Origin: an uncultured Bacteroidales bacterium
Lineage (GTDB): Bacteria > Bacteroidota > Bacteroidia > Bacteroidales > Bacteroidaceae
NCBI GenBank assembly: GCA_902778625.1
Contig: CACYYM010000015.1
Location: 5,567-69,566 of the forward strand
Length of the DNA: 64,000 bases
Direction of reading: 5' to 3'
Made by a program: the position numbers and the translations under genes. Positions 7,761 through 57,978 of the stretch are shown here, one piece after another. The notes beneath the pieces are model-generated. The model was not told where the DNA came from. It did no database searches and saw nothing but the letters and a program-made list of their open reading frames with translations. The number at the start of each line of letters is the position of its first letter. Positions within the stretch are counted from its first letter, which is position 1.

Positions 7761-7878
7761 ATAACGTGTTAAGTCGGCAAACTTAACGTGTTAAAACGAC
7801 AAACTTAACGTGTTAAAACGACAAACTTAACGTGTTAAAATGACAAACTTAACGTGTTAAAACGACAAACTTAACGTA
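7761..7878. repeat. 22-bp tandem repeat, about 5.4 copies (ttaacgtgttaaaacgacaaac)
   Basis: Read directly. Copies start at 7761, 7783, 7805, 7827 and 7849, with a partial copy at 7871. The array ends 27 nt before the amylase ATG. Confidence 0.95.
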
Positions 7879-7904: not shown

Positions 7905-9908
7905 ATGAAAAAATTTGGACTTTTGCTATCAGCAATCATACTGCATTTAACCGTCTTTGCACAAGGCTGGCCGATGGATTATGACGGCGTGATGATGCAG
8001 GGATTCTATTGGGATTCCTATTCAGAAACGTCTTGGGCGAAGCTTGAAGCACAGGCAGACGAGATTGCTCCTTATTTCCAATTGATTTGGATTCCGCAGA
8101 GCGGATGGTGTAACAGCGATTACACTATGGGCTACATGCCTGTCTATTACTTCGACCAAAAGAGTGCTTTCGGTTCCGAATCACAGCTTCGAAGTATGAT
8201 AAAAACTTACAAGAAAAAGGGTACGGGCTTCATCGCCGATGTTGTTCTCAACCATCGAAAGAATATTGGCAAAGATGGCTCATGGGTTGACTTTCCCGAA
8301 GAGACATACAACGGTGTAACGTATCAGATGTATCCCTCCGATATCTGCAAGAACGACGACGGCGGAGCGACAGGCAATTGGGCATCGGCACACGGTATTT
8401 CGCTCTCGGAGAACAATGACACAGGCGATGATTGGTCAAGCTGTCGCGACCTCGATCATAACAGTCAAAACGTCCAAGAATACATCAAAGCCTATCTCGA
8501 TTTCCTACTTAACGACATAGGTTATGTCGGTTTCCGCTATGATATGGTGAAAGGCTTCTATGCAAGTTTCGTTGGCGAATATAATATGGCGGCAAGACCT
8601 GCTTTCAGCGTTGGCGAATACTTTGATGGAACAAGCAACATCAAACAGTGGATAGACTTCACGAAAGGTTATGTGGCAGAATATCCGACCAGCGGAGCCT
8701 TCGACTTCGGCTTCCGTTATCGCATGATTGATGCTGTCAACAATCAGAAATGGCGTTATCTTGGAGAGGGCGATCCACCACTTATTTCTGATAATTACTA
8801 TAAGCAGTATGCCATAACCTTCGTCGAGAATCATGATACCGAGAATCGAATCAATGGAGATGTGCAGAATCCAATCTACAGAGACACACTTGCTGCAAAC
8901 GCTTACATGCTTGCAATGCCTGGAACGCCTTGCGTCTTCTACAGACATTGGGCGGACTGCAAGTATCCGCTCAAGCAAATGATTCTTGCCAGACGACTTG
9001 CCGGCATCACGAACACTTCTGGTGCTGAAGAGAAATGGAGAGACGACAAATACTATGCAAAGGCAGTTTACGGCAAGAACGCCACTCTGATCTGTGTCGT
9101 TGGCAGCAATCCAGACGGGTATGGAGTGAGCACTTCTGACTATCGCAAAATACTTTCCGGCAAAGGATATCGCTATTATTTGAGTCGAAACGCCAACACA
9201 GTTTGGATGGATGTCCCAGATGGAACTTACGAAGGCTCAATTCAAGTCAAGTTCACTGCAGTTAGCAATTATACTGGCTTCAGGATTGTCTATACGACAG
9301 ACGGCTCTGATCCGACTTCCGAAAGCAACACTATTACAAGCGGAAGCACTTTGAGTATCGAATCCTCCTGTACGCTTAAGGCCGGCATATTGCATGGAGG
9401 CAAGGTTTATGGCATTCAGACTCGCAAGTACAACATCTTTGTGCCACACGACATCACGCTTTACGTTCACTCCGACGTCACTTGGTCCGCAATGTCCTTC
9501 TACGTCTGGGACAACCTCGACAACAAGCCCAACGGCAATTGGCCCGGCAAGCGAGTAAGGGATACTAAGGAGATAGGAGGCAAGACATGGAACTATCAGA
9601 CCTATCATCTCTCGTCGGCCGACCAATACCTCAACTTGATTGTTACAAACACAGCAGGCGGCAGACAAACCATTGACGTTCGTGGTATCCGCTCTGACCG
9701 CTTCTTCTGCATTACAGGAGACAAGGACGGGAGCAACTTCATCATTGAAGACCAGACGGATGATATGGCGACAGGAATTGAGGAACTTGACAACTTTACG
9801 CCCTCACCATTTAACAATTCCGCTTTCAACCTGCAAGGCATGCCTGTTCCTCAAGGCAAGAAGAAAGGCATCATTATAGAGAACGGACGAAAGACCCTGT
9901 ATAAATAA
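7905..9908 (+). CDS. GH13 alpha-amylase with C-terminal binding domains and T9SS sorting tail
   Basis: GH13 regions DVVLNH, GFRYDMVKG, VGEYFDG and FVENHD. C-terminus FNLQGMPV...KGIIIENGRKTLYK resembles a T9SS CTD. Confidence 0.85.
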   Translation: MKKFGLLLSAIILHLTVFAQGWPMDYDGVMMQGFYWDSYSETSWAKLEAQADEIAPYFQLIWIPQSGWCNSDYTMGYMPVYYFDQKSAFGSESQLRSMIKTYKKKGTGFIADVVLNHRKNIGKDGSWVDFPEETYNGVTYQMYPSDICKNDDGGATGNWASAHGISLSENNDTGDDWSSCRDLDHNSQNVQEYIKAYLDFLLNDIGYVGFRYDMVKGFYASFVGEYNMAARPAFSVGEYFDGTSNIKQWIDFTKGYVAEYPTSGAFDFGFRYRMIDAVNNQKWRYLGEGDPPLISDNYYKQYAITFVENHDTENRINGDVQNPIYRDTLAANAYMLAMPGTPCVFYRHWADCKYPLKQMILARRLAGITNTSGAEEKWRDDKYYAKAVYGKNATLICVVGSNPDGYGVSTSDYRKILSGKGYRYYLSRNANTVWMDVPDGTYEGSIQVKFTAVSNYTGFRIVYTTDGSDPTSESNTITSGSTLSIESSCTLKAGILHGGKVYGIQTRKYNIFVPHDITLYVHSDVTWSAMSFYVWDNLDNKPNGNWPGKRVRDTKEIGGKTWNYQTYHLSSADQYLNLIVTNTAGGRQTIDVRGIRSDRFFCITGDKDGSNFIIEDQTDDMATGIEELDNFTPSPFNNSAFNLQGMPVPQGKKKGIIIENGRKTLYK

Positions 9909-15653: not shown

Positions 15654-16520
15654 TTAGTTGGTTAATAAATGTATCACTCTAATGCCCGTTTGGACAGGGT
15701 GTTTCTGCATGTATTCATAAAGCGTCATGGGTTCGAGCACGACTTTCTTGTGGATGCTGCTGGCATTGAGCAGATGCAATTTGCCGTCCTTTCCCCAAAC
15801 GGCAAAGCCTACGTGACTTACATCCAGGCCTTTCTTGTTTGTGGTGATGGCAATGATGTCGCCGTCCTTGACGCAGCTGAGCACCTTCTTGCTGTCCCCT
15901 ACCCGGTCCTTTGGAATATAACGGACAGTTGCTCCCGTCACGCGTTTCTCCATCTCGGCAATGAGTTTGCGCTCTTCCATGTTGACTTTGAGCAAGGGAT
16001 AAGAGTCAGGGTGCTCGCTCATATAGGTCAGGCTGAGTTTCATCGGCACAGAGATGCTGGTGGGAGGCACGATTTCCTTTACCAGGCCGAGCTTCGTGCC
16101 CGACTGAATCCATTGGCTAAAGTAGTGATTGCGACTCTTGTAGCCATCTATCTTGCCTGCATCGTAACGCAACTTTTGCAGCCAGGCAAGGTAGTCCTTC
16201 CAGCTCTTGCTGCCGTGACTTGTCGTGAGAGCAAGCGCACAGCAATTCTCAACTAGAGTGGTGCAGTCGAGGCTTTGCAGATTGATGGCAAGATGCTCCT
16301 CCATATCCTTAATTTCGAGCGTGTGAGCCACATAAGGACGGTTCATCAATTGCTTCGCATAGAACAATGTAAGCGGTTCATTTGCAGGTGCTTTTGCTCC
16401 AAGCTTCAACAGCTCAACAACTCGAAGGCTGTCCTCCTTTGTGTAGCTTACTTCCTGAGCTTGAGCACAGAAGATAAAGGAAGATAGAAGAGGAAAGATA
16501 TAGGACAATAGTCTTTTCAT
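15654..16520 (-). CDS. DUF1460-type secreted protein (amidase/transglutaminase-like fold family)
   Basis: Signal peptide. Overall resemblance to DUF1460 proteins. Lies immediately upstream of ampG. Confidence 0.55.
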   Translation of the reverse strand: MKRLLSYIFPLLSSFIFCAQAQEVSYTKEDSLRVVELLKLGAKAPANEPLTLFYAKQLMNRPYVAHTLEIKDMEEHLAINLQSLDCTTLVENCCALALTTSHGSKSWKDYLAWLQKLRYDAGKIDGYKSRNHYFSQWIQSGTKLGLVKEIVPPTSISVPMKLSLTYMSEHPDSYPLLKVNMEERKLIAEMEKRVTGATVRYIPKDRVGDSKKVLSCVKDGDIIAITTNKKGLDVSHVGFAVWGKDGKLHLLNASSIHKKVVLEPMTLYEYMQKHPVQTGIRVIHLLTN

Positions 16521-16547
16521 ATTCTCTAAACTCTAAACTCTAAACAT

Positions 16548-17798
16548 TCAACTTTCCTCTGGCAGATGAAGCATTGCAGTAACTGCGAAGGTAACAAGGC
16601 AGAAGCCCATCACGGCGATGAAGAACTGCTGATAGCCCATCTGGTCGGACATCCAGCCGCTCACCATACCTGGCAACATCACGCCGCCAAGGTACTGAAA
16701 GGCTGTGCAGAACGAGAAGACAGAGGTGCTTCGCTCGCCATGAGAGAAGCTGACGAGGTAAAGCGTGTAAGCCGTAAAACCTAGTCCGTAGCCCACTTGT
16801 TCGATGAAGACGCAGGTTGCGATGAGCGGCAGGCTTTGCGACTGAATGTAGCTCAGATAGACATAAACGATATCGGGCAAGGTAATGCAAAGCACGAGCG
16901 GCCAAAGCATTTTCTTCAAGCCGAACTTCGAGACGAGCCAGCCGCCTACGATGCCGCCGCCAAGCAGTCCGATGACACCTAAAGTGCCATAGACAAAGCC
17001 GTACTGAACATCCGTCAGCGCCAGTCCGCCCTCAGCAATAGTACGCTTCAGGAAGAGCGGCACAATCTTCGTCAGCAAGCCCTCAGGCAAGCGGAAAAGC
17101 AGGATGAAGAGCAGAGCCGTGATGAGGTGCGGCTTGGTGAAGAAGACCTTCAACGTCAATCCGAAGTCTTCGAGGATGTTCAGTTTCTCTCCTTTTGGTG
17201 AGTCAGAATCGGGCTTGGGCAATGCTTTCCAATGATAAGCCGCAAGCATCAGCATCAGGCCAGCAACGGCGAGAAAAGTGATGCTCCACGACAGAGGAAT
17301 GCTCATCTCGCTCTTCTGCAAAAGGCCTGCCAGCATGACCAGACCGCCCTGCCCCAGCACCATTCCGATGCGATAGAAGGTGTTGCGAAGGCCTACATAG
17401 AGTTCCTGGTCTTTATTGGTGAGGCCGAGGATGTAGAAACCATCGGCACAGATGTCGTGAGTGGCGCTGCTGAAGGCAATCAGCATGAAGAGGGCAAGCG
17501 AGCATTGCAGCCAAAAGCTGGTGGGCAGCGTGAAGGCAAGCAAAGCAAGTGAAGCTCCGATGAGCAGCTGCATGGCGAGAATCCACCAACGCTTCGTCTT
17601 GATGCCGTCCACGACAGGGCTCCAAAGGGGCTTAATCACCCAAGGCAGCCCGAGCCAGCCCGTATAGAGCGTGATTTGCGTGTCGGTCAAACCCATCTCC
17701 TGATAGAGGACGAGCGACATCAGCATTACGGCTGCGTAAGGAAGCGATTCGCCCAGATACAGACTGGGCACCCATTGAAGCGGTTTTGTCGTTTTCAT
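16548..17798 (-). CDS. ampG: AmpG-family muropeptide MFS transporter
   Basis: 416 aa, 12+ TM. N-terminal PSLYLGESLPYAAV and LGLPWVIKPLWSP motifs of AmpG. Confidence 0.8.
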   Translation of the reverse strand: MKTTKPLQWVPSLYLGESLPYAAVMLMSLVLYQEMGLTDTQITLYTGWLGLPWVIKPLWSPVVDGIKTKRWWILAMQLLIGASLALLAFTLPTSFWLQCSLALFMLIAFSSATHDICADGFYILGLTNKDQELYVGLRNTFYRIGMVLGQGGLVMLAGLLQKSEMSIPLSWSITFLAVAGLMLMLAAYHWKALPKPDSDSPKGEKLNILEDFGLTLKVFFTKPHLITALLFILLFRLPEGLLTKIVPLFLKRTIAEGGLALTDVQYGFVYGTLGVIGLLGGGIVGGWLVSKFGLKKMLWPLVLCITLPDIVYVYLSYIQSQSLPLIATCVFIEQVGYGLGFTAYTLYLVSFSHGERSTSVFSFCTAFQYLGGVMLPGMVSGWMSDQMGYQQFFIAVMGFCLVTFAVTAMLHLPEES

Positions 17799-18296: not shown

Positions 18297-20204
18297 TCAT
18301 CTTGCATTGTGCATGATGCTGTAACCAGCCAAGCGGTCATAGCGGGAACCTTGCTGGCGGTAATAAACGAGGACTTCGTATTCGTTCTCGGTCTCAAAGA
18401 AACTGCCCATCGTTCGCTGCATAAGGCCGTCTTTCTGGATGAACTCGTAGCTGTAATAGCCTTGCTTCAACAGGATGGCAGCATGATAATACTGATGCGC
18501 ATCATCGTACTCCATCTTGCAATCGGGATTGAACGTCTGCCCCGACCACCAGCCGCTCACATACACGTCGCCGCCCTGCAAGCGAGGCGTTTCGAGGAAG
18601 AAGTGCACAACGACATATTCAGCCGTCGTCCAGTCGTCATAATTATCTGAACTCCTGACCACATAGACGCCGTTCTGGTCTTCTGAATAGCTGTAGGCAT
18701 GGTCTACTACGGCAGGGAAGAGCGTGGCATGATAGTAAGGCTCGAACCATTCGATGCGGTCCACTCCAGTAGCCGTTCGATGCACATCGAGAATCTCAAA
18801 GCGATGGTATTCGTTGCCGGCAGGAAAGATGAGGTTGCGATTGTGCGTGAACTCGATGCCGTTGGCTCGACGGATGTTCGGCACAAGGCCCTCTACCCTA
18901 CTGTCCCAACGACGATTCTGCATGACGATGACCTTGAGGTCGCGTTCCGGGTCGAAGATTGACAAGGCGCCGTAGCCGATGGAGAGCGTCATTTGCTGAT
19001 GCCTGTCGTTGAAGTCAATGTCGGTATTGCTGCTGATTTGAGCCATGATGCCTGCCTCGCGTTCATAGATGCAGAAACGGGCTTCAAGCACGGGCTCGTC
19101 CTTCTCATCTTCTTCATAAATAAGGACACGATAGTTGCCGCTCAGTCGGAGTCTTATCTCCTTTGAAGGGACGCGAAGCCGATAGTGCGTATAGATTTGT
19201 GTGGTATTGAAACTCTTCTCAAAGTCCTCGATGAGCTGGTCGTTCAGGCCTTCGAGGAAGTCGCTTTCGAAGATGTCGTCGGTCACGTTCCAATCCCAAT
19301 CGCAATGGTCGATGTGGTAGCGGTAGCGCTTGTAGTCGTGGCTCATCTCGTCCCACTCGATATCGATGTACTGACGCCCACCGAATGCGAGATAAGGCGG
19401 CAAGGTGGGGTCATCGTCGATGGTCAAAGTGAGGGTTCGCACATTTCCGCCAAAGATTTGTTGGACTTGCGAGAAAAGGTGAATGGGTGAAAGGGTAAAA
19501 AGAAGGAAGAAGATAATGGTTCGGAGGATATTGCTCTCGTCATTATTGGGCTTGTCTTCGCCTTTCAGCACAGGCAATTGCCAATGGAACTTGACGGCCA
19601 AACAGCGAATGAGAATAACGATGAAAGAGCTGAGCAAGGCACTTATCTCGACACTCAACCCAAGCTCAAGGCATGCGACGTAAGTCAAACCTCCTGCCAC
19701 GCAAGCTAGGGCATAAATCTCGCTACGGAAAATGAGGGGAACGTCGTTCATCAAGACATCACGAATGATGCCACCACCGGCTCCTGTCACAGCTCCCATC
19801 GTGATGGCCACCCAATAAGGATGTCCGAAGGTAAGTGCTTTCTCGAGGCCTACGACGTTGAAGAGCGCAAGTCCGATGGTGTCGAAGATGAACCAGGTAT
19901 AGTTGTGGTGGATGATGTACTTGCCGAACATGCCGACAGCGAGCACCGCAAGTGCGCAGCAGACAAAGTAGCTGCCGTTGGTCATCCAAAAGGGATTGAC
20001 GCCAAGCATAAGGTCGCGAATCGTTCCGCCACCAATCGCAGTCGCCATACCCACAATCCAAGCACCAAAGATGTCGAAATGCTTCGTCGAGGACAATCGG
20101 ACACCTGAGATAGCAAAGGCAAAGGTACCGATGAACTCGATGATGACAAAAGTGACGGGCAACCTTAACGTATCGCCCATGTCCTGCAGGAACTCGAGCA
20201 GCAT
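18297..20204 (-). CDS. in-frame fusion: TRIC/UPF0126 cation-channel domain + T9SS plug-like (DUF5103) domain
   Basis: Residues 1-~205 carry the two GGGTIRD/GGGIIRD UPF0126 repeats. The rest matches DUF5103 (HCDWDW, SGNYRVLIYEE, NRRWDSR, LKQGYYSYEF). The link KGEDKPNNDESN-ILRTIIFFLLFTLSPIHLFSQ has no in-frame ATG/GTG/TTG. Confidence 0.7.
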   Translation of the reverse strand: MLLEFLQDMGDTLRLPVTFVIIEFIGTFAFAISGVRLSSTKHFDIFGAWIVGMATAIGGGTIRDLMLGVNPFWMTNGSYFVCCALAVLAVGMFGKYIIHHNYTWFIFDTIGLALFNVVGLEKALTFGHPYWVAITMGAVTGAGGGIIRDVLMNDVPLIFRSEIYALACVAGGLTYVACLELGLSVEISALLSSFIVILIRCLAVKFHWQLPVLKGEDKPNNDESNILRTIIFFLLFTLSPIHLFSQVQQIFGGNVRTLTLTIDDDPTLPPYLAFGGRQYIDIEWDEMSHDYKRYRYHIDHCDWDWNVTDDIFESDFLEGLNDQLIEDFEKSFNTTQIYTHYRLRVPSKEIRLRLSGNYRVLIYEEDEKDEPVLEARFCIYEREAGIMAQISSNTDIDFNDRHQQMTLSIGYGALSIFDPERDLKVIVMQNRRWDSRVEGLVPNIRRANGIEFTHNRNLIFPAGNEYHRFEILDVHRTATGVDRIEWFEPYYHATLFPAVVDHAYSYSEDQNGVYVVRSSDNYDDWTTAEYVVVHFFLETPRLQGGDVYVSGWWSGQTFNPDCKMEYDDAHQYYHAAILLKQGYYSYEFIQKDGLMQRTMGSFFETENEYEVLVYYRQQGSRYDRLAGYSIMHNAR

Positions 20205-20239: not shown

Positions 20240-20506
20240 CTATTCCACCAGCCCGACCTTAATCCACTCGTCGAGCAATGCCTTGGCATCTTTCGAAGCG
20301 GTTTCGGCATCTACCTCATACTCTTGTTGCAGGAGTGAAGCCATAGTCTCGGCATCGAAATCCTTATCGACAATGTTCTTCCAAAGGAAAGTTGCCGACT
20401 CGTTGAGGCTGATGACTTTGTTGAAGTCGATATTTGCTTTGCCGTAAGCCACGATAATGTGCTCGCCGCACACTTCGCGGAGTTCAAATCCTTGCTTAAT
20501 CTTCAT
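20240..20506 (-). CDS. PqqD-family (RRE-like) peptide-binding protein
   Basis: Start set at MKIKQGFELREV (ATGA overlap with the upstream stop). LNESATFLWKNI...ETMASLLQQEYEVDAETASKDAKALLDEWIKVGLV fits the PqqD pattern. Confidence 0.75.
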   Translation of the reverse strand: MKIKQGFELREVCGEHIIVAYGKANIDFNKVISLNESATFLWKNIVDKDFDAETMASLLQQEYEVDAETASKDAKALLDEWIKVGLVE

Positions 20507-21030
20507 CTTATTGCGTTGTAAAATAATAATAATATTCTTCTTATGGGTCGGAGCTTTCGCCACAACTTGATGCGACGGACGAGCTTCGGGTCGTCGGCTG
20601 GAATGATGCGATTGGGGCGGATGTATTGCGTCACGACGCCGCTCACGTCACCCACTTTGCAAAGCTCCACGCTTTTCAGGTTGCCGTCGCCTTGAAGTGT
20701 AAGGTTGTCACCGTCCTTATCAATGATGCGATGCAAGACATAATGACCCGGAGCAATCTGGGCGAGGACAGCATCGCCAACATTGTAGGTGTCACGCTTC
20801 TCCAAGAAAACCCGATCGCGAGTGTGCTCGATGAAGGGGCGCATACTATATCCTTTCACATAGATGGCATAAGGTTTCCCTTCGTGCAACATCTTCGTCA
20901 CTTCGCCCAGCCAAGCATCGTTGGGAAGTTCATGCCGAGGCTGATTCGAGACGATGCCATTGCGTTTGCGATACCTTTTGCGGAAAGGCGTCAGCAAAGC
21001 GGTCAACAGTTTTCTTACGAGCTCTTTCAT
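20503..21030 (-). CDS. S24/S26-type serine peptidase
   Basis: GYSMRPF nucleophile box and LQGDGN box. 175 aa. 4-nt overlaps with both neighbouring genes. Confidence 0.65.
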   Translation of the reverse strand: MKELVRKLLTALLTPFRKRYRKRNGIVSNQPRHELPNDAWLGEVTKMLHEGKPYAIYVKGYSMRPFIEHTRDRVFLEKRDTYNVGDAVLAQIAPGHYVLHRIIDKDGDNLTLQGDGNLKSVELCKVGDVSGVVTQYIRPNRIIPADDPKLVRRIKLWRKLRPIRRILLLFYNAIR

Positions 21031-21905
21031 TTAGCTATTGTGTCGTGGCAAAGTATGGCTGCTTCTGCATTTGGCAAACATCCCAGTTCATACATCCCTA
21101 CGAGACGGATGAGTTCGCCAATTCCGTCGCAAACACCTTTATAGACGCGCTCGTCCCACTTCATATTGCTCATGGCAGGAAGCAAGTTGCAGAAGGCTTC
21201 AATGGTGCTGAGCTTTCGAATGGTATTCTCTGGTCGTTGCTGAATGCGGACAAGTCCGCCAATCGGTGCTTGTATGTTGCGGTAGCATTTCGTCTTTCCG
21301 CTCCAAGGACTGCCGTAAATGATGGCTTGACCATCTATGACGCGTACCACAGGATTATCGTCGTTCATCAGGTCGCAACCAGGAATGTTGTCGTACCAAA
21401 GACGCGTGTGTGTACTCTTGCCCGTACCGCTTGGAGCTGTCATGAGATAGCCTTTGCCTTCGCAACGAATGACGGAAGCGTGCATCAGCATCGTGCCCAT
21501 ACAAGCTGCAGAGAAAGCATAAGCCATCATCAGAGCATTGTTCAGGCCGTAGTTGCGTTGTGCCCAAGTTTCTCCAAATAGCGACACTTGACAAACTGAG
21601 AAGTCGGCATTGCTTCGCATACGACTGCAAAGGACATTGTTGACATCGTGAATGGCATACTGATAACCGCCATCCTTCATTCGGTAAACACCATGGTCGC
21701 AGCCGCCACAATCGAACACTCCTATCTCTTCGCCATCTTCTTGCCAATCGAGATGGTCGTCGACAGTTATGGTAAAAAGCACTTCTTCGGGCTTTTCTTC
21801 GAGTCTGAATGGTGCAAACGAAGGGATGAGTTGCTCGTCGTTTCCTTCATCGACGAAGTTGACGACAAGCGAATGACCGCCTATTTTATAGTATAGTGAC
21901 TTCAT
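21027..21905 (-). CDS. HprK-related P-loop kinase (HPr-kinase C-terminal-domain-like only)
   Basis: MTAPSGTGKSTHTRLW P-loop in a 292-aa protein. No HprK N-terminal domain. Confidence 0.6.
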   Translation of the reverse strand: MKSLYYKIGGHSLVVNFVDEGNDEQLIPSFAPFRLEEKPEEVLFTITVDDHLDWQEDGEEIGVFDCGGCDHGVYRMKDGGYQYAIHDVNNVLCSRMRSNADFSVCQVSLFGETWAQRNYGLNNALMMAYAFSAACMGTMLMHASVIRCEGKGYLMTAPSGTGKSTHTRLWYDNIPGCDLMNDDNPVVRVIDGQAIIYGSPWSGKTKCYRNIQAPIGGLVRIQQRPENTIRKLSTIEAFCNLLPAMSNMKWDERVYKGVCDGIGELIRLVGMYELGCLPNAEAAILCHDTIAK

Positions 21906-22366
21906 TTCTTTTTGTCTTTCTTCTTGGGCTTAACGACCGCTATTTCCTCCTGTTCGATGTATTCTTCTGGTTTGAAGCGGAACTGCCCTTGGTCAACGAG
22001 CACCATTTGCAGCCCTTTTCCACTTGCATAACGTTTGTGCAACGACAGATATTTGCGCTCCATCTTCTTCCTATTCTTGCTGAAGAAGACGCTTGGAACA
22101 TAAGGACCGCCCTTGTAATTCTCCTCGAGATAACGTTGCAACTGGAAGGAATAGAGCTGACGGTCAGCAAGGAACTTCGTCTTCTTTTCCAATGTGACAC
22201 TATCAACGAGGTGCATATCAGTGATAAAGACGGCGGAATCGACCAGCGAGATGCCCACACCAACCATGTAGACGGGCTTCTGTACAACTTTCTTCTGCTT
22301 GGCTTCAAGAGCCCCTGCAATCAAGCTAAGCAAGCCCAAGCATATAATTAACTTTAATATTCTCAT
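21902..22366 (-). CDS. secreted 154-aa protein with Lys-rich tail, unknown function
   Basis: Signal peptide MRILKLIICLGLLSLIAGALEA and C-terminal KPKKKDKKK. First gene of the overlapping operon. Confidence 0.5.
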   Translation of the reverse strand: MRILKLIICLGLLSLIAGALEAKQKKVVQKPVYMVGVGISLVDSAVFITDMHLVDSVTLEKKTKFLADRQLYSFQLQRYLEENYKGGPYVPSVFFSKNRKKMERKYLSLHKRYASGKGLQMVLVDQGQFRFKPEEYIEQEEIAVVKPKKKDKKK

Positions 22367-22390
22367 TTACATTCGCATATAATTCGGGCA

Positions 22391-22398
22391 CAAAGGTA
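22391..22398 (-). promoter_or_regulatory. -7 box TACCTTTG for the 22366->20240 operon
   Basis: caaaggta on the + strand, 25 nt upstream of start 22366 and immediately after the htrA terminator. Confidence 0.55.
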
Positions 22399-22399
22399 C

Positions 22400-22431
22400 G
22401 AAAAATCCCCGAACCCGCAAAGGATTCGGGG
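22400..22431 (-). terminator. rho-independent terminator of htrA
   Basis: ccccgaa...ttcgggg 7-bp stem followed, on the minus strand, by ATTTTT. Confidence 0.6.
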
Positions 22432-22468
22432 AAATCTTATTCTCTTATTTTCTAAATATCTTATTTTC

Positions 22469-24515: not shown

Positions 24516-24945
24516 ATCAGTGAACCGGCTTGTCGCTGCTCTGCTTGCGTTCTTTCAGGAGCAAAACAGAGGAGAGGAAAGTCCGGGCAACACAGGGCAT
24601 CTCGCTTCCTAACGGGAAGAGGCTCGCGAGGGTCTGTCTGTGCAGAAGAAAACAACCGCCCTTTGAAATGTTGAAACCTCAAACAGTTGAAACGTTAAAA
24701 GGGGTAAGGGTGAGAAGGTGAGGTAAGAGCTCACCAGGTCGGCAGTGATGTCGATGCTGTGCACACCGAGAGTTGAAAGTTCATGTAAACCCGCGCATTT
24801 GTCCCGAGCTTGGCGAAGGATAACGAGAGGGCGGCCCGTCCGAGCGGGAGGGTAGAACGATAGAGGACAGCGGCGACGCTGTCAGTAGATAAATGACAGG
24901 CATTCCTTAAACGGAACACAGAACCCGGCTTACAGGTTCACTGAT
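24516..24945 (+). ncRNA. rnpB: RNase P RNA, bacterial type A
   Basis: GAGGAAAGTCCGGGC, GGTAAGGGTGAGAAGGTGAGGTAAGAGCTCACC and ACAGAACCCGGCTTAC universal blocks. P1 pairing atcagtgaacc / ggttcactgat defines the ends. Confidence 0.9.
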
Positions 24946-24966
24946 TTTTCTTTATATAAAAAGAAC

Positions 24967-55298: not shown

Positions 55299-55358
55299 AG
55301 TTCGTGTTCGTTAAACCGTAAACTGTAAACTGTAAACTGTAACCCGTAAACTTTATAT
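55299..55358. repeat. site A: ttcgtgttcgtt core + gtaaact array
   Basis: cagttcgtgttcgttaaaccgtaaactgtaaactgtaaactgtaacccgtaaacttta. Inverted copy at 61214-61292, direct copy of the core at 61569-61583. Confidence 0.85.
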
Positions 55359-56486
55359 TTTCTCAAAGAAATGCGACCACACGCTGTTGAACAGGAATGA
55401 CGGCATGGAGGTGTAGCTGAAGTCGCGGAAATTCTTGTTGTTCTTCATGATTTTGAAGAAGAGATTCACTCTTTTGCGGAACCATGAACGTTGGCCTGAT
55501 GCCTTCACTTCTTCAGGCAGAGAGAAGATCTCGTCATAGACTCTTCGGTGAGATGGCGCAAGCGATTCGTATGTCTTTTTGCCCTCAACGACATCAGCCA
55601 AAGCCTCTATCAAAGCCAGAACGCGGTCGAACCTGAATTCCTTGCATCTCGCCTCAAAAGCCGCCCTATCGAAATCCTGTTTCCTGAGAACAACCCAATC
55701 CACGATGTGCTTCAGCGACAACTTGTCTTGTTGCAGATCCCCCAAAGCATGCTCCACATAAAGCATCACGGTGAACATCAAAGGCGGGCAAGCCAATGTC
55801 GTTCCCTCGAAAAACCTCCCTTGAACTCCTTGCTCCGCACCTTGGGGGTGCGCCTTGGTGCTAAAGCATCCAAGAACATCTTGAACTCTTGAACTCTCAA
55901 GCAGTCCTCGCAAGTATCGCTCAACCTTCTGCAGGTTCTTGTTCCCACGATATGGCGTGATACATCTGTGGCACTCCACATAGACATCGTCCAGCCTGAA
56001 CTCCGCCTCTTTATAGACCTCAAACTCCAACTGAACACCCTTCTCTTCCAACAGCTTGCAAGCCCGCTCCCAGTCGTGTCCAATGAAGACATCCAAGTCG
56101 CAGCTGTAGCGATGGCTGGGCACAGGATAGTATTGAGCGATGGCCCGTCCCTTCAGGACAGTTGCGTGAATGCCAGCAGCCGACCACAACCGGTCCAACT
56201 TACGCGCCACAGCCCAAGTCCGTTCATACTGAGAGCATTGTTTGTCCGTATGGCCATACCATTGCATCAGCATCTCGAGATCAGGACGCTGATTCGCAGG
56301 CAGTTTCTCCAATGCCTCGAAGCACAATCCCAGCACCCCCTGACTAATTGCAAAATCCAACGCCTCCTGCCAATCCGTGCCTGCAGGAATCTCGATTGCC
56401 AGACCAGGATTCAGCGCCTTACGTATCAGAAGTGTAACAACCCAAACAGTAGCGTCATTCATAGTTGAAATGCTTTCGCAATCCAT
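55353..56486 (-). CDS. uncharacterised nucleotidyltransferase family (NTP_transf_5-like)
   Basis: Start placed at MDCESIST (56486; 56462 is also possible), after a TACTTTTG box at 56503-56510. RYSCDLDVFI DxD motif. 377 aa. Confidence 0.5.
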   Translation of the reverse strand: MDCESISTMNDATVWVVTLLIRKALNPGLAIEIPAGTDWQEALDFAISQGVLGLCFEALEKLPANQRPDLEMLMQWYGHTDKQCSQYERTWAVARKLDRLWSAAGIHATVLKGRAIAQYYPVPSHRYSCDLDVFIGHDWERACKLLEEKGVQLEFEVYKEAEFRLDDVYVECHRCITPYRGNKNLQKVERYLRGLLESSRVQDVLGCFSTKAHPQGAEQGVQGRFFEGTTLACPPLMFTVMLYVEHALGDLQQDKLSLKHIVDWVVLRKQDFDRAAFEARCKEFRFDRVLALIEALADVVEGKKTYESLAPSHRRVYDEIFSLPEEVKASGQRSWFRKRVNLFFKIMKNNKNFRDFSYTSMPSFLFNSVWSHFFEKI

Positions 56487-56544
56487 CAATCGTACTTTTA
56501 CTGCGCAAAAGTACAAAAAAACAAGCACAGTACAAAATAAATGA

Positions 56545-56652: not shown

Positions 56653-57978
56653 TCAAACAATCGCTTCCCTAATGCACTCCACAATATACTTGACATCTTC
56701 ATCCGTCACATACGGTCCTGCAGGCAAGCACATGCCAATCTTGAAGATGTCCTCCTCTACCCCGTTGGTATAGACCGGTGCATCTTTATATACCGGCTGC
56801 TTGTGCATAGGCTTCCATACAGGGCGGCACTCTACCTTCTTGTTCAACATAAACACGCGCATAGCCTCTACATTGTCGTTTGGCTGACAGTCTGTGGTGG
56901 CTGAATCCACCTGATGAATCACACCGGCAGCACCACCCACAGCCGTCTTTATCACCTCCTTGTAAGCGTTCTCCTGCCCTTTCACCTTCACAGAAGGATC
57001 GAGCGTCATCGTGCACAACCAGTAATTACTATCATACTCACCACTCTCAACTTTCGAACTGTCACTAAACTCTAAACTCTCAACTCTACACTTTGGTTGA
57101 CTGTTCACAGTCACGCCTTTCACATCAGCCAAAAGCTCTTCATACAGCCCTTGCACATGCTTATGGTGTGCAATATGGTCGTTCAAGACGGTCATTTGTC
57201 CGCGACCAATACCGGCACACACATTACTCATGCGATAGTTATAACCGATGGCAGAATGCTGATAGTATGGATAAGCATCACGAGCCTGAGTGGCATACCA
57301 CATAATCTCGTTGGCATCTTCTGCCGAACGACAAATCAATGCACCGCCACCACTGGTAGTAATCATCTTGTTGCCATTGAACGAGAGCACGCCATACTTG
57401 CCAAATGTGCCCAGCACCTGACCATTGAAGCGTGAGCCCATACCCTCAGCAGCATCCTCCACTACAGGAATACCATACTTGTCTGCGATAGCCATGATCT
57501 TGTCTATCTGATAAGGCATACCGTAGAGCGCCACAGGCACAATCGCCTTGGGATATTTGCCAGTCTTCTCTTTGCGGTCTATGATGGCCTTCTCCAGCAA
57601 ATCGGGGTCCATATTCCAAGTCTCTTTTTCCGAGCCAATGAATACAGGCTTGGCTCCACAATACGTGATTGGATGCGAAGAAGCACAGAACGTAAAGCTC
57701 TGCACAATCACTTCATCACCAGGACCTACCCCACACGCCAAAAGTGCCAAGTGCACAGCCGCAGTACCAGCGGAAAGACAGACCACCTTCCGATCAAGGG
57801 GTTCACTACCGTCCGTTTTACTATTGGCAAAGTCAGCAAGGTCTTTCTCGAAAGCATTCACATTCGGCCCCATCGGCACCACCCAATTCGTGTCGAAAGC
57901 CTCCTTCACGTATTTCTGTTCCCAACCCTCCTCGCTCATGTGAGCCAAGCAGAGGTAAATTGTTTTGCGTCCTTCCAT
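56653..57978 (-). CDS. DegT/DnrJ/EryC1/StrS-family PLP aminotransferase (sugar aminotransferase)
   Basis: IYLCLAHMSEEGWEQKYVKEAFDTNWVVPMGPNV N-terminus, SFNGNKMITTSGGG (PLP Lys context) and SNYWL. Confidence 0.85.
   Translation of the reverse strand: MEGRKTIYLCLAHMSEEGWEQKYVKEAFDTNWVVPMGPNVNAFEKDLADFANSKTDGSEPLDRKVVCLSAGTAAVHLALLACGVGPGDEVIVQSFTFCASSHPITYCGAKPVFIGSEKETWNMDPDLLEKAIIDRKEKTGKYPKAIVPVALYGMPYQIDKIMAIADKYGIPVVEDAAEGMGSRFNGQVLGTFGKYGVLSFNGNKMITTSGGGALICRSAEDANEIMWYATQARDAYPYYQHSAIGYNYRMSNVCAGIGRGQMTVLNDHIAHHKHVQGLYEELLADVKGVTVNSQPKCRVESLEFSDSSKVESGEYDSNYWLCTMTLDPSVKVKGQENAYKEVIKTAVGGAAGVIHQVDSATTDCQPNDNVEAMRVFMLNKKVECRPVWKPMHKQPVYKDAPVYTNGVEEDIFKIGMCLPAGPYVTDEDVKYIVECIREAIV

Follow-up and report, generated by a model that had tools for sequence, protein, structure and literature searches.

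A kinase-peptidase-PqqD gene cassette of Bacteroidales that looks like a peptide-maturation system related to lasso-peptide tailoring sets

Gene clusters for lasso peptides have a documented accessory set comprising an HPr-type kinase, a PqqD protein and a nucleotidyltransferase of the PF14907 family (PMC7533575). Here we describe a cassette of four coupled genes in a 64,000-nucleotide stretch of DNA (hereafter the window) from an uncultured Bacteroidales bacterium (contig CACYYM010000015.1 of assembly GCA_902778625.1). The cassette encodes an exported protein (A154), a putative Ser/Thr kinase of the HprK/phosphoenolpyruvate carboxykinase (PEPCK) fold (K292), a soluble serine peptidase (S175) and a PqqD-family protein (P88), i.e. 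a recognition element (RRE) of the kind that serves peptides made on the ribosome and modified after translation (RiPPs); A, K, S and P denote the respective families. By analogy, it looks like a system for RRE-dependent peptide maturation related to the lasso tailoring sets. Other described systems resemble parts of it. ScmC (TIGR04249 / PF27840) of the SynChlorMet (SCM) cassette is the best NCBIfam match of K292 and is likewise paired with a PqqD homologue, the HPr-rel-A system (TIGR04352) joins an HprK-like protein to a PqqD-family partner, and the ER/archaeal-type signal peptidases Sec11/SPC18 and SipW (MEROPS S26B) share with S175 the Ser-His pattern and the motif order SM.P ... HR ... 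GD(G/N)N.

A preliminary description of the locus had reported four minus-strand genes with a 4-nt overlap at each junction. Sequence and open reading frame (ORF) reading confirmed all four ORFs between 22366 and 20240 at the same coordinates (Table 1), with an ATGA stop/start overlap at every junction. Comparison of the 80 best genome loci and three metagenome loci, 82 of which contain K, revealed that S follows K in 79/82 and P follows in 76/82 of the K-containing loci, with order and strand kept in almost all. The conserved unit is the kinase-peptidase-PqqD triad (K-S-P) and not the four-gene set: K-S-P co-occurs widely, from Prevotella to Muribaculaceae, Rikenellaceae and Paludibacteraceae, whereas the 154-aa gene is specific to Prevotellaceae. 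The K family comprises at least 8000 clusters at 90% identity (word-indexed search) and 7616 representatives at 50% identity with E<1e-3, 620 of them with E<1e-30; at least 595 K loci are found in GTDB species representatives. Carriers in culture include Hoylesella shahii DSM 15611, Prevotella ihumii, Palleniella intestinalis, Hallella absiana and Phocaeicola massiliensis. The source name of K relatives was 'hypothetical protein' in every case seen. Within each family, catalytic and structural residues are invariant in 36-71 diverged sequences of 30-45% identity.

Gene fusions and recurrent neighbours further describe the triad. K and S are fused in three proteins (P0181, P0198, P0213), and S is fused to PF14907 ('uncharacterised nucleotidyltransferase') in locus L057; stand-alone PF14907 genes also adjoin P, and Phocaeicola massiliensis has a tight P-PF14907-ABC-K-S operon. 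In 17 loci of non-Prevotellaceae lineages, K-S-P is followed by an ATP-binding cassette (ABC) half-transporter of ~545 aa with ABC_membrane and ABC_tran domains. Some K-S-P copies stand alone amid housekeeping genes, and in one relative (L088) S is lost and PqqD is shortened.

The window itself encodes a PF14907 NTP_transf_5 protein (113 bits) 33 kb from the cassette, of the same family as is fused to or adjoins S and P in other lineages; its gene lies next to genes for a DegT/DnrJ/EryC1 aminotransferase and an NYN-domain protein. In L086 (5525-8597; also in L087) K-S-P resides on a conjugative element that also has genes for a relaxase and for NikA-like, ParA and DUF3408 proteins. In front of the triad stand an AraC regulator, a 32-aa ORF (MKNFEKNYDVSEKLNALRSSGKSLDVRELKLS, with Ser at the end) and a 444-aa RicinB_lectin_2 protein without signal peptide; these lectin and ORF neighbours could be cargo or a toxin tied to the module.

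K292 contains an SGTGKST P-loop at residues 159-165 (DNA 21411-21431), in agreement with the GTGKST motif read earlier in this 292-aa protein. Among 38 diverse homologues the invariant positions are H142 and S144 (HASV), S159-S164 of the P-loop, N181-D182-D183-P185 and G198/W201-T205 (GSPWSGKT). The AlphaFold2 model of K292 (predicted local distance difference test, pLDDT, 95.3; predicted template modelling score, pTM, 0.92) was compared with the PDB using Foldseek; the 50 listed of 55 matches at E<=0.001 were all PEPCK or HprK/P, namely ATP-dependent PEPCK over the whole protein (template modelling score ~0.5) and the C-domains of HprK/P, with E-values from 1e-6 to 2e-4. Single-sequence PDB searches with K and S returned only noise, and family profiles were used instead. 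Aligned by hhalign to Bacillus subtilis HprK/P, the K family gave a probability of 93.3% and E 2.8e-7, with H142 on the HprK His, the P-loops in register and NDD on ADD. K292 thus resembles HprK/P in fold, in the core H-x-x...GxSGxGKS...(A/N)DD and in its length of ~300 aa. It differs in that it diverges past Asp-Asp, has GSPWSGKT in place of the HprK signature and possesses another N-terminal domain; moreover, no gene of the phosphotransferase system (PTS), ptsH included, or of carbon catabolite control was present in the scanned window ORFs or among the recurrent neighbours of the 80 loci. The preliminary description had likened K292 in size to the HPr-kinase C-terminal domain alone, but 292 aa is about the length of full-length HprK/P and includes a beta-rich N-terminal domain of its own besides the P-loop domain. 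The HprK-like kinase call stands in a modified form: there was no Pfam match to Hpr_kinase_C or Hpr_kinase_N at E<=1, and the Hpr_kinase_C assignment was dropped for want of hidden Markov model (HMM) support in favour of fold and motifs, whereas the HprK/PEPCK fold and the His/P-loop/Asp-Asp core are kept. K292 is predicted from its fold and motifs to be a phosphotransferase of the HprK/PEPCK superfamily, belonging to a distinct family.

S175 displays the motifs GYSMRPF (Ser62, DNA 20845-20847), VLHRII (His100, DNA 20731-20733) and LQGDGN (GDGN at 114-117, DNA 20680-20691). The GYSMRPF and LQGDGN boxes, earlier attributed to an S24/S26 peptidase, are invariant or nearly so in relatives; across 71 orthologues G60-S62-M63, H100-R101, G114-D115-G116-N117, E122, W157 and R164 do not vary, the last two belonging to a conserved C-terminal helix (W157..P162.R164-R165). 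The window protein scored 22.8 bits against Peptidase_S24 (PF00717), just below the Pfam gathering score of 23.3, while its relatives P0198, P0181 and L057 passed this threshold with 33.8, 24.7 and 25.1 bits, respectively; TIGR02228 (sigpep_I_arch) of NCBIfam was matched with 20.2 bits, under its cut-off of 51.85. In the PDB, the S-family profile matched LexA, SEC11A/C and SpsB only, with GxSM aligned to GMSM of LexA. The hhalign comparison with human SEC11A (consistent with the PDB match 7p2p_A) gave a probability of 89.8% and E 1.8e-6, pairing Ser62 with Ser56, His100 with His96 and GDGN with GDNN. The Lys general base of LexA/UmuD-type S24 peptidases is replaced throughout the S family by the invariant His100-Arg101. 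Since the profile aligns to the catalytic residues of SEC11A, the replacement of Lys by His, as in SipW and the endoplasmic reticulum enzymes, which had been a tentative reading by eye, is supported. Unlike S26B signal peptidases, S175 has no membrane anchor: the maximum Kyte-Doolittle hydropathy over 19 residues has a median of 0.98 in the family and reaches 1.6 in 1/36 sequences, so that it is a soluble, cytoplasmic enzyme rather than an extracytoplasmic one. The conserved W..P.RR helix and the fusions to K or PF14907 in some lineages also set it apart from S26B. K, S and P all lack a signal peptide and transmembrane segments.

The earlier PqqD/RRE-like call for the 88-aa protein was clearly upheld by the HMM check, P88 matching PqqD (PF05402) over its full length with 59.1 bits (gathering score 23.4; E 5.4e-16). 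A profile of 33 P orthologues found TfuB1 (6jx3_B) as its best PDB match (E 9.3e-7), and the next matches were the lasso B1 proteins 9x90_B, 9x8z_B and 5v1u_A, with one unrelated chain among them. Judged by these profiles, the closest solved relatives of P88 are the leader-binding B1 proteins of lasso-peptide systems.

Resemblance to the SCM and HPr-rel-A systems was slight. K292 matched ScmC with E 8.5e-6 and HprK_rel_A with E 4.4e-5, the latter alignment covering only the P-loop region, and P88 scored 13.8 bits against ScmD (TIGR04248), under the equivalog cut-off of 100. Precomputed PF27840 'ScmC' matches of K relatives are mostly marked 'weak', the one in L089 being unmarked. The SCM cassette is defined by two PqqE-like radical SAM/SPASM enzymes (TIGRFAMs description). 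Neither the recurrent neighbours of the 80 loci nor the ORFs scanned at ~10.8-30.6 kb of the window include a radical SAM/SPASM family, and literature searching on 'ScmC' yielded unrelated acronyms only. To our knowledge, neither SCM nor HPr-rel-A includes an S24/S26 peptidase.

The relation to lasso clusters is closer. Their accessory set consists of B1, an HprK-like kinase (PadeK/ThcoK/PsmK), the PF14907 protein PsmN and the ABC exporter D, and the same four families co-occur around K-S-P; in addition K keeps the HprK catalytic core, P88 is nearest to lasso B1, and a 57-aa ORF beside the triad in Butyrivibrio (see below) carries YxxPxL, the motif by which lasso B1 proteins bind leaders. K-S-P differs in that a cyclase (Asn-synthetase-like), B2 (transglutaminase-like) and a precursor in cis are all missing, an S24/S26-type Ser/His peptidase taking the place of B2. 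No lasso cyclase or B2 protease was found in any of the 80 loci. Likewise, no cyclase, B2 protease, radical SAM enzyme or small precursor was present among the window ORFs scanned, so that the absences listed in the preliminary description, including that of an exporter, hold within the window scans. Its statement that there are no known partner enzymes is true of this clade only, as kinase, PqqD and nucleotidyltransferase families also accompany lasso clusters, and an ABC exporter and/or PF14907 adjoin K-S-P elsewhere.

A tblastn search revealed a related set on the Butyrivibrio fibrisolvens plasmid pNP243, where downstream of a K homologue ('hypothetical protein', WP_073386880.1) come, in this order, a 57-aa ORF (WP_167562696.1), a 'PqqD family protein' (WP_073386881.1) and an 'S24/S26 family peptidase' (WP_073386882.1), with genes for an ABC ATPase, PF14907 and glycosyltransferases (PssD/PssE, GT2) nearby. 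The 57-aa ORF (MKKAYVKPELKASMNGTLEGVYACPDYNTGSNKEQYCYDPCWNPCYNPCQPSYGRIW) is Cys-rich and contains YVKPEL, a lasso-like match to YxxPxL. Directly adjoining this K-57aa-P-S set is a complete lasso cluster (L096, 287-6397) comprising B2, a kinase-like hypothetical protein of 301 aa, a cyclase related to Asn synthase, a precursor of 49 aa (MKAWNTPVMESLEINETAGGYNQITEHDGVINYSAGIPAEEYASGPLPR), a nucleotidyltransferase and a B1 of PqqD type; two PqqD-dependent systems thus share one polysaccharide-rich locus. The Bacteroidales K, S and P profiles recognized the pNP243 triad with E-values of 1.4e-34, 6.6e-22 and 9.3e-17, respectively, as compared to 4.7e-3 for K and 2.7e-4 for P against the kinase-like protein and B1 of the lasso cluster. 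The far better scores indicate that the triad is a distinct orthologous set and not a lasso by-product; its K and P orthologues differ clearly from the kinase-like protein and the B1 that the neighbouring lasso cluster encodes for itself. A metagenome scan with Butyrivibrio K retrieved three identical loci only. On a further contig, found in a scan of IMG/VR viral contigs (L101, 451-2112; low-GC, with a serine recombinase), a shortened K of 245 aa overlaps an S homologue (GDSMMP / LHRI / GDN), and the next gene encodes a protein that has a signal peptide and a C-terminal domain rich in Lys.

The first gene of the window cassette has a narrower distribution. A154 begins with a Sec-type signal peptide (~residues 1-22, ..ALEA|K), followed by an alpha/beta domain of ~100 residues and a Lys-rich tail predicted to be disordered. 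Its homologues conserve Y33, G36, D43, S44, T49, L66, R69, Y72, Q75 and F129 and have signal peptides with AxA-type sites, after which Gln follows in several; in Bacteroidetes, cleavage sites of signal peptides reportedly obey an A|Q rule. The KPKKKDKKK tail emphasized in the preliminary description proved variable and is not conserved among homologues. A154 had no Pfam or NCBIfam match, its AlphaFold2 model (pLDDT 82, from a shallow alignment) resembled no solved or predicted structure significantly, the best E-values being 0.9 in the PDB and 0.02 in BFVD, and a profile search for further A homologues added little diversity. A 287-aa 'paralogue of A' suggested by clustering was discarded as RpoD, which had been joined in through over-long ORFs. 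A is restricted to Prevotellaceae-type loci, in which HtrA and the primary sigma factor RpoD often precede the cassette (HtrA-RpoD-A-K-S-P), and was not detected in distant Bacteroidales (Muribaculaceae, Rikenellaceae, Paludibacteraceae, Cryptobacteroides and others). Among the ~62 loci that have A, it lies directly 5' of K in nearly all, the exceptions being L029 (427-aa ORF between) and L049 (contig ends before the full K ORF); look-ups seeded with distant A homologues again gave HtrA-A-K-S-P. A and K are often translationally coupled, and A and the ABC exporter are mutually exclusive as neighbours of K-S-P. Because its linkage to K is strict, A appears to be functionally tied to the cassette. 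Most likely, A154 is a periplasmic accessory, e.g. a receptor, immunity or handling factor.

The Prevotella-type arrangement HtrA-(RpoD)-A-K-S-P was also seen in three loci labelled 'Clostridia bacterium' (L035), 'Paratractidigestivibacter sp.' (L041) and 'Oscillibacter sp.' (L044), RpoD being missing from the map of L041. These are probably mis-binned contigs of metagenome-assembled genomes.

Given these data, we consider it an even chance that K-S-P works in the cytoplasm as a leader-guided module for cleavage and phosphorylation of a peptide whose gene lies elsewhere. P88 would bind the leader of a peptide or small protein made by the ribosome and present this substrate both to S175, whose Ser62/His100 endopeptidase would remove the leader, and to K292, which would phosphorylate Ser or Thr. 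In other lineages the PF14907 nucleotidyltransferase may tailor the product and the dedicated ABC half-transporter may export it. In the window's clade the operon includes neither an exporter nor a nucleotidyltransferase gene, the substrate gene would not be in cis, and the Prevotellaceae-specific A154 would have been taken up as first gene, coupled in translation to the triad. Of the explanations we considered, this RRE-guided processing is the best-supported model; it parallels the lasso accessory set, with a new peptidase and no cyclase. Gene structure, folds, the conservation of catalytic residues, co-occurrence, fusions and topology are direct observations, from which the biochemical steps, export, an unlinked precursor and the part played by A154 are inferred. 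The preliminary description had left a choice between a minimal peptide-modification pathway and a kinase/peptidase pair acting on the 154-aa protein. The former is favoured by the comparative data, because K-S-P recurs without A, is fused in some lineages and stands beside an ABC exporter and/or PF14907; the latter is weakened.

Several observations count against leader-guided maturation of a peptide. The match scores of K292 to ScmC (25.3 against a cut-off of 125) and HprK_rel_A (22.7 against 200) fall far short of the NCBIfam cut-offs, the similarity of K to HprK stops after about residue 197, and the putative kinase activity is read from fold and motifs. The operon is without an exporter, and no homologue of the ABC exporter turned up when all ORFs of the window were searched directly. 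When short ORFs no more than 1.5 kb away from the core were compared all-versus-all in ~80 loci, only PqqD and shadow frames recurred, and a scan for YxxPxL near Bacteroidales K-S-P gave scattered unconserved hits and no motif-bearing precursor ORF; the substrate is hence hypothetical. Unusually long K-S or S-P gaps consist of low-complexity repeats without ORFs, and the window operon, with non-coding flanks of just 102 nt upstream and 35 nt downstream, has no space for a further small gene. Only one case of a precursor candidate, that of Butyrivibrio, is at hand, and on the Firmicute-like contig L101 no PqqD lies directly downstream of K-S, the downstream side being the one examined. Finally, K-S-P of Prevotellaceae sits in stable housekeeping synteny (HtrA-[RpoD]-A-K-S-P), which is unusual for a natural-product cluster.

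This last feature is the starting point for another explanation, namely that K-S-P is no natural-product machinery but serves Bacteroidales in a housekeeping or regulatory role, for regulated proteolysis and phosphorylation of a cellular protein, e.g. in envelope stress or surface-glycan assembly, or that K acts on a small molecule or glycan. We regard it as a real but doubtful possibility. Conservation looks vertical and syntenic beside htrA and rpoD with no precursor in cis, and the whole-protein fold match of K to PEPCK, a small-molecule kinase, equals that to HprK. The PF14907 and glycosyltransferase genes (PssD/PssE, GT2) near the Butyrivibrio triad, and the DegT aminotransferase gene that adjoins the PF14907 gene of the window, would likewise speak for it. 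However, a B1-like PqqD is so far a hallmark of leader-peptide recognition, the dedicated ABC exporters in the operon indicate an exported product, one K-S-P copy is carried on a conjugative element, and the Butyrivibrio triad brackets a Cys-rich 57-aa ORF.

Alternatively, A154 might itself be the substrate, PqqD binding its signal-like N-terminus, S175 cleaving it and K292 phosphorylating it. What keeps this explanation in play is the position of A directly upstream of K in nearly all of its ~62 loci, distant-homologue look-ups included. The frequent A-K coupling, the AxA-type cleavage site of A combined with the signal-peptidase-like character of S, the near-invariant Ser44 and Thr49 as potential phospho-acceptors, and the mutual exclusion of A and the ABC exporter beside K-S-P would all agree with it. 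Yet more than 20 loci, as well as Phocaeicola and Butyrivibrio, have K-S-P without detectable A, and A therefore cannot be the ancestral substrate; its canonical Sec signal and restriction to Prevotellaceae, with K, S and P lacking signal peptides and transmembrane segments, argue against this role too. Several A homologues fit the A|Q rule, consistent with ordinary processing by signal peptidase I, the Lys-rich tail is not conserved, and PqqD-type elements are known for peptide leaders and not for Sec signal peptides. We thus consider A154 an unlikely substrate. It is more improbable still, to a high degree, that the cassette is a decayed, functionless remnant of a lasso-type cluster that lost cyclase, B2 and precursor: although the window lacks these and an exporter, and L088 lacks S and has a shortened PqqD, the residues invariant across 36-71 diverged sequences per family (30-45% identity), the intact ORFs in at least 595 species and the distinctness of the Bacteroidales K and P families from the Butyrivibrio lasso kinase and B1 argue otherwise. 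A role in anti-phage defence was set aside as PADLOC gave no defence-system match for any of the four cassette proteins or for the PF14907 protein.

Going beyond leader-guided maturation in the window's clade, we tentatively propose, as a possibility rather than an expectation, that K-S-P represents an unrecognized class of peptide maturation, dependent on leaders and widespread among Bacteroidales of gut, mouth and rumen, with relatives in Lachnospiraceae, in which a B1-like RRE would recruit a cytoplasmic, soluble Ser/His leader peptidase and an HprK-fold kinase to make exported linear phosphopeptides, optionally nucleotidylated or glycosylated, from unlinked precursors. We know of no RiPP system in which a soluble Ser/His enzyme of the signal-peptidase type removes the leader. 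Full-text literature searching turned up no account of the cassette, and a dedicated paper on RiPP mining in Bacteroidales makes no mention of it. Bacteroidales dominate the human gut and the rumen, and few of their ribosomal peptide pathways are known. Peptide processing by K-S-P would imply a new, soluble Sec11/SipW-like type of leader peptidase, phosphorylated peptides made outside lasso pathways, and enzymes unlinked from their precursors, a case that standard genome mining misses. If a cellular protein is the target instead, hundreds of species would share an unrecognized post-translational control system. On either reading, three 'hypothetical proteins' in thousands of metagenomic clusters gain testable roles, and the K-57aa-P-S set of Butyrivibrio is a tractable system to start from.

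Table 1. Cassette genes and other features of the window (positions counted from the first nucleotide of the window).
Feature	Position	Strand	Description
A154 (A)	21902..22366	-	154 aa, exported protein, first gene
K292 (K)	21027..21905	-	292 aa, two-domain PEPCK/HprK-fold P-loop protein, putative Ser/Thr kinase
S175 (S)	20503..21030	-	175 aa, soluble S24/S26-clan serine peptidase
P88 (P)	20240..20506	-	88 aa, PqqD-family protein (RiPP recognition element)
Candidate operon promoter box TACCTTTG	22391..22398	-	matches Bacteroidetes -7 consensus TAnnTTTG
htrA intrinsic terminator	22406..22432	-	TCCCCGAATCC...GGGTTCGGGGA then TTTTT; 11-pair stem, 7 GC pairs
Downstream 635-aa gene	18297..20204	-	TRIC/UPF0126 channel domain fused to type IX secretion system (T9SS) plug protein
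AmpG-like/AmiA-like pair	15654..17798	-	major facilitator superfamily (MFS) transporter (MFS_1/BT1) and N-acetylmuramoyl-L-alanine amidase
RNase P RNA	24517..24948	+	bacterial class A, full length, 229.6 bits
PF14907 gene	55353..56528, with 56653..57978	-	NTP_transf_5 protein
Tandem array	7762..7877		5.3 copies of a 22-nt unit, 94% matches

The expression signals described earlier, a TAnnTTTG box and the htrA terminator in front of the operon, were both located (Table 1). The terminator separates htrA from the cassette. The box TACCTTTG lies 25 nt 5' of the first ATG (A154); as this motif is short and occurs 50 times in the window as against 30.3 expected, its position is suggestive but individually weak and no proof of a promoter. 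The surroundings of the cassette are of housekeeping character (HtrA, RNase P RNA, BrkB-like, GHMP kinase, Rnf), the RNase P RNA gene being situated between htrA and the BrkB/YihY-like gene.

Downstream, the 635-aa gene begins 35 nt past P88 with no terminator between and is possibly co-transcribed with the cassette. Its product was found near the core in 16/83 loci in variable orientation, and since this linkage is restricted to the window's own clade the gene is not part of the conserved module. The protein consists of a TRIC/UPF0126 'Gly_transporter' membrane domain (~residues 1-210) and a complete T9SS plug (NF052315, 409 bits; PF17116). The two halves are fused in the window's clade (L001, L004-L008, L011) and are separate genes in L009, L012, L015, L017, L018 and L020, on opposite strands in L015. 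A hydrophobic stretch inside the protein (ILRTIIFFLLFTLSPIHLFSQ) looks like a former signal peptide; a T9SS plug tethered to the inner membrane would be unusual. The AmpG-like/AmiA-like pair downstream of this fusion gene looks like peptidoglycan recycling and is syntenic with the cassette in the window's clade only.

At a distance from the cassette, an intergenic tandem array of the unit TAACGTGTTAAAACGACAAACT precedes the gene at 7905. Every 22-nt unit of this array contains, on the minus strand, TAAGTTTG, which is a match to the TAnnTTTG box.

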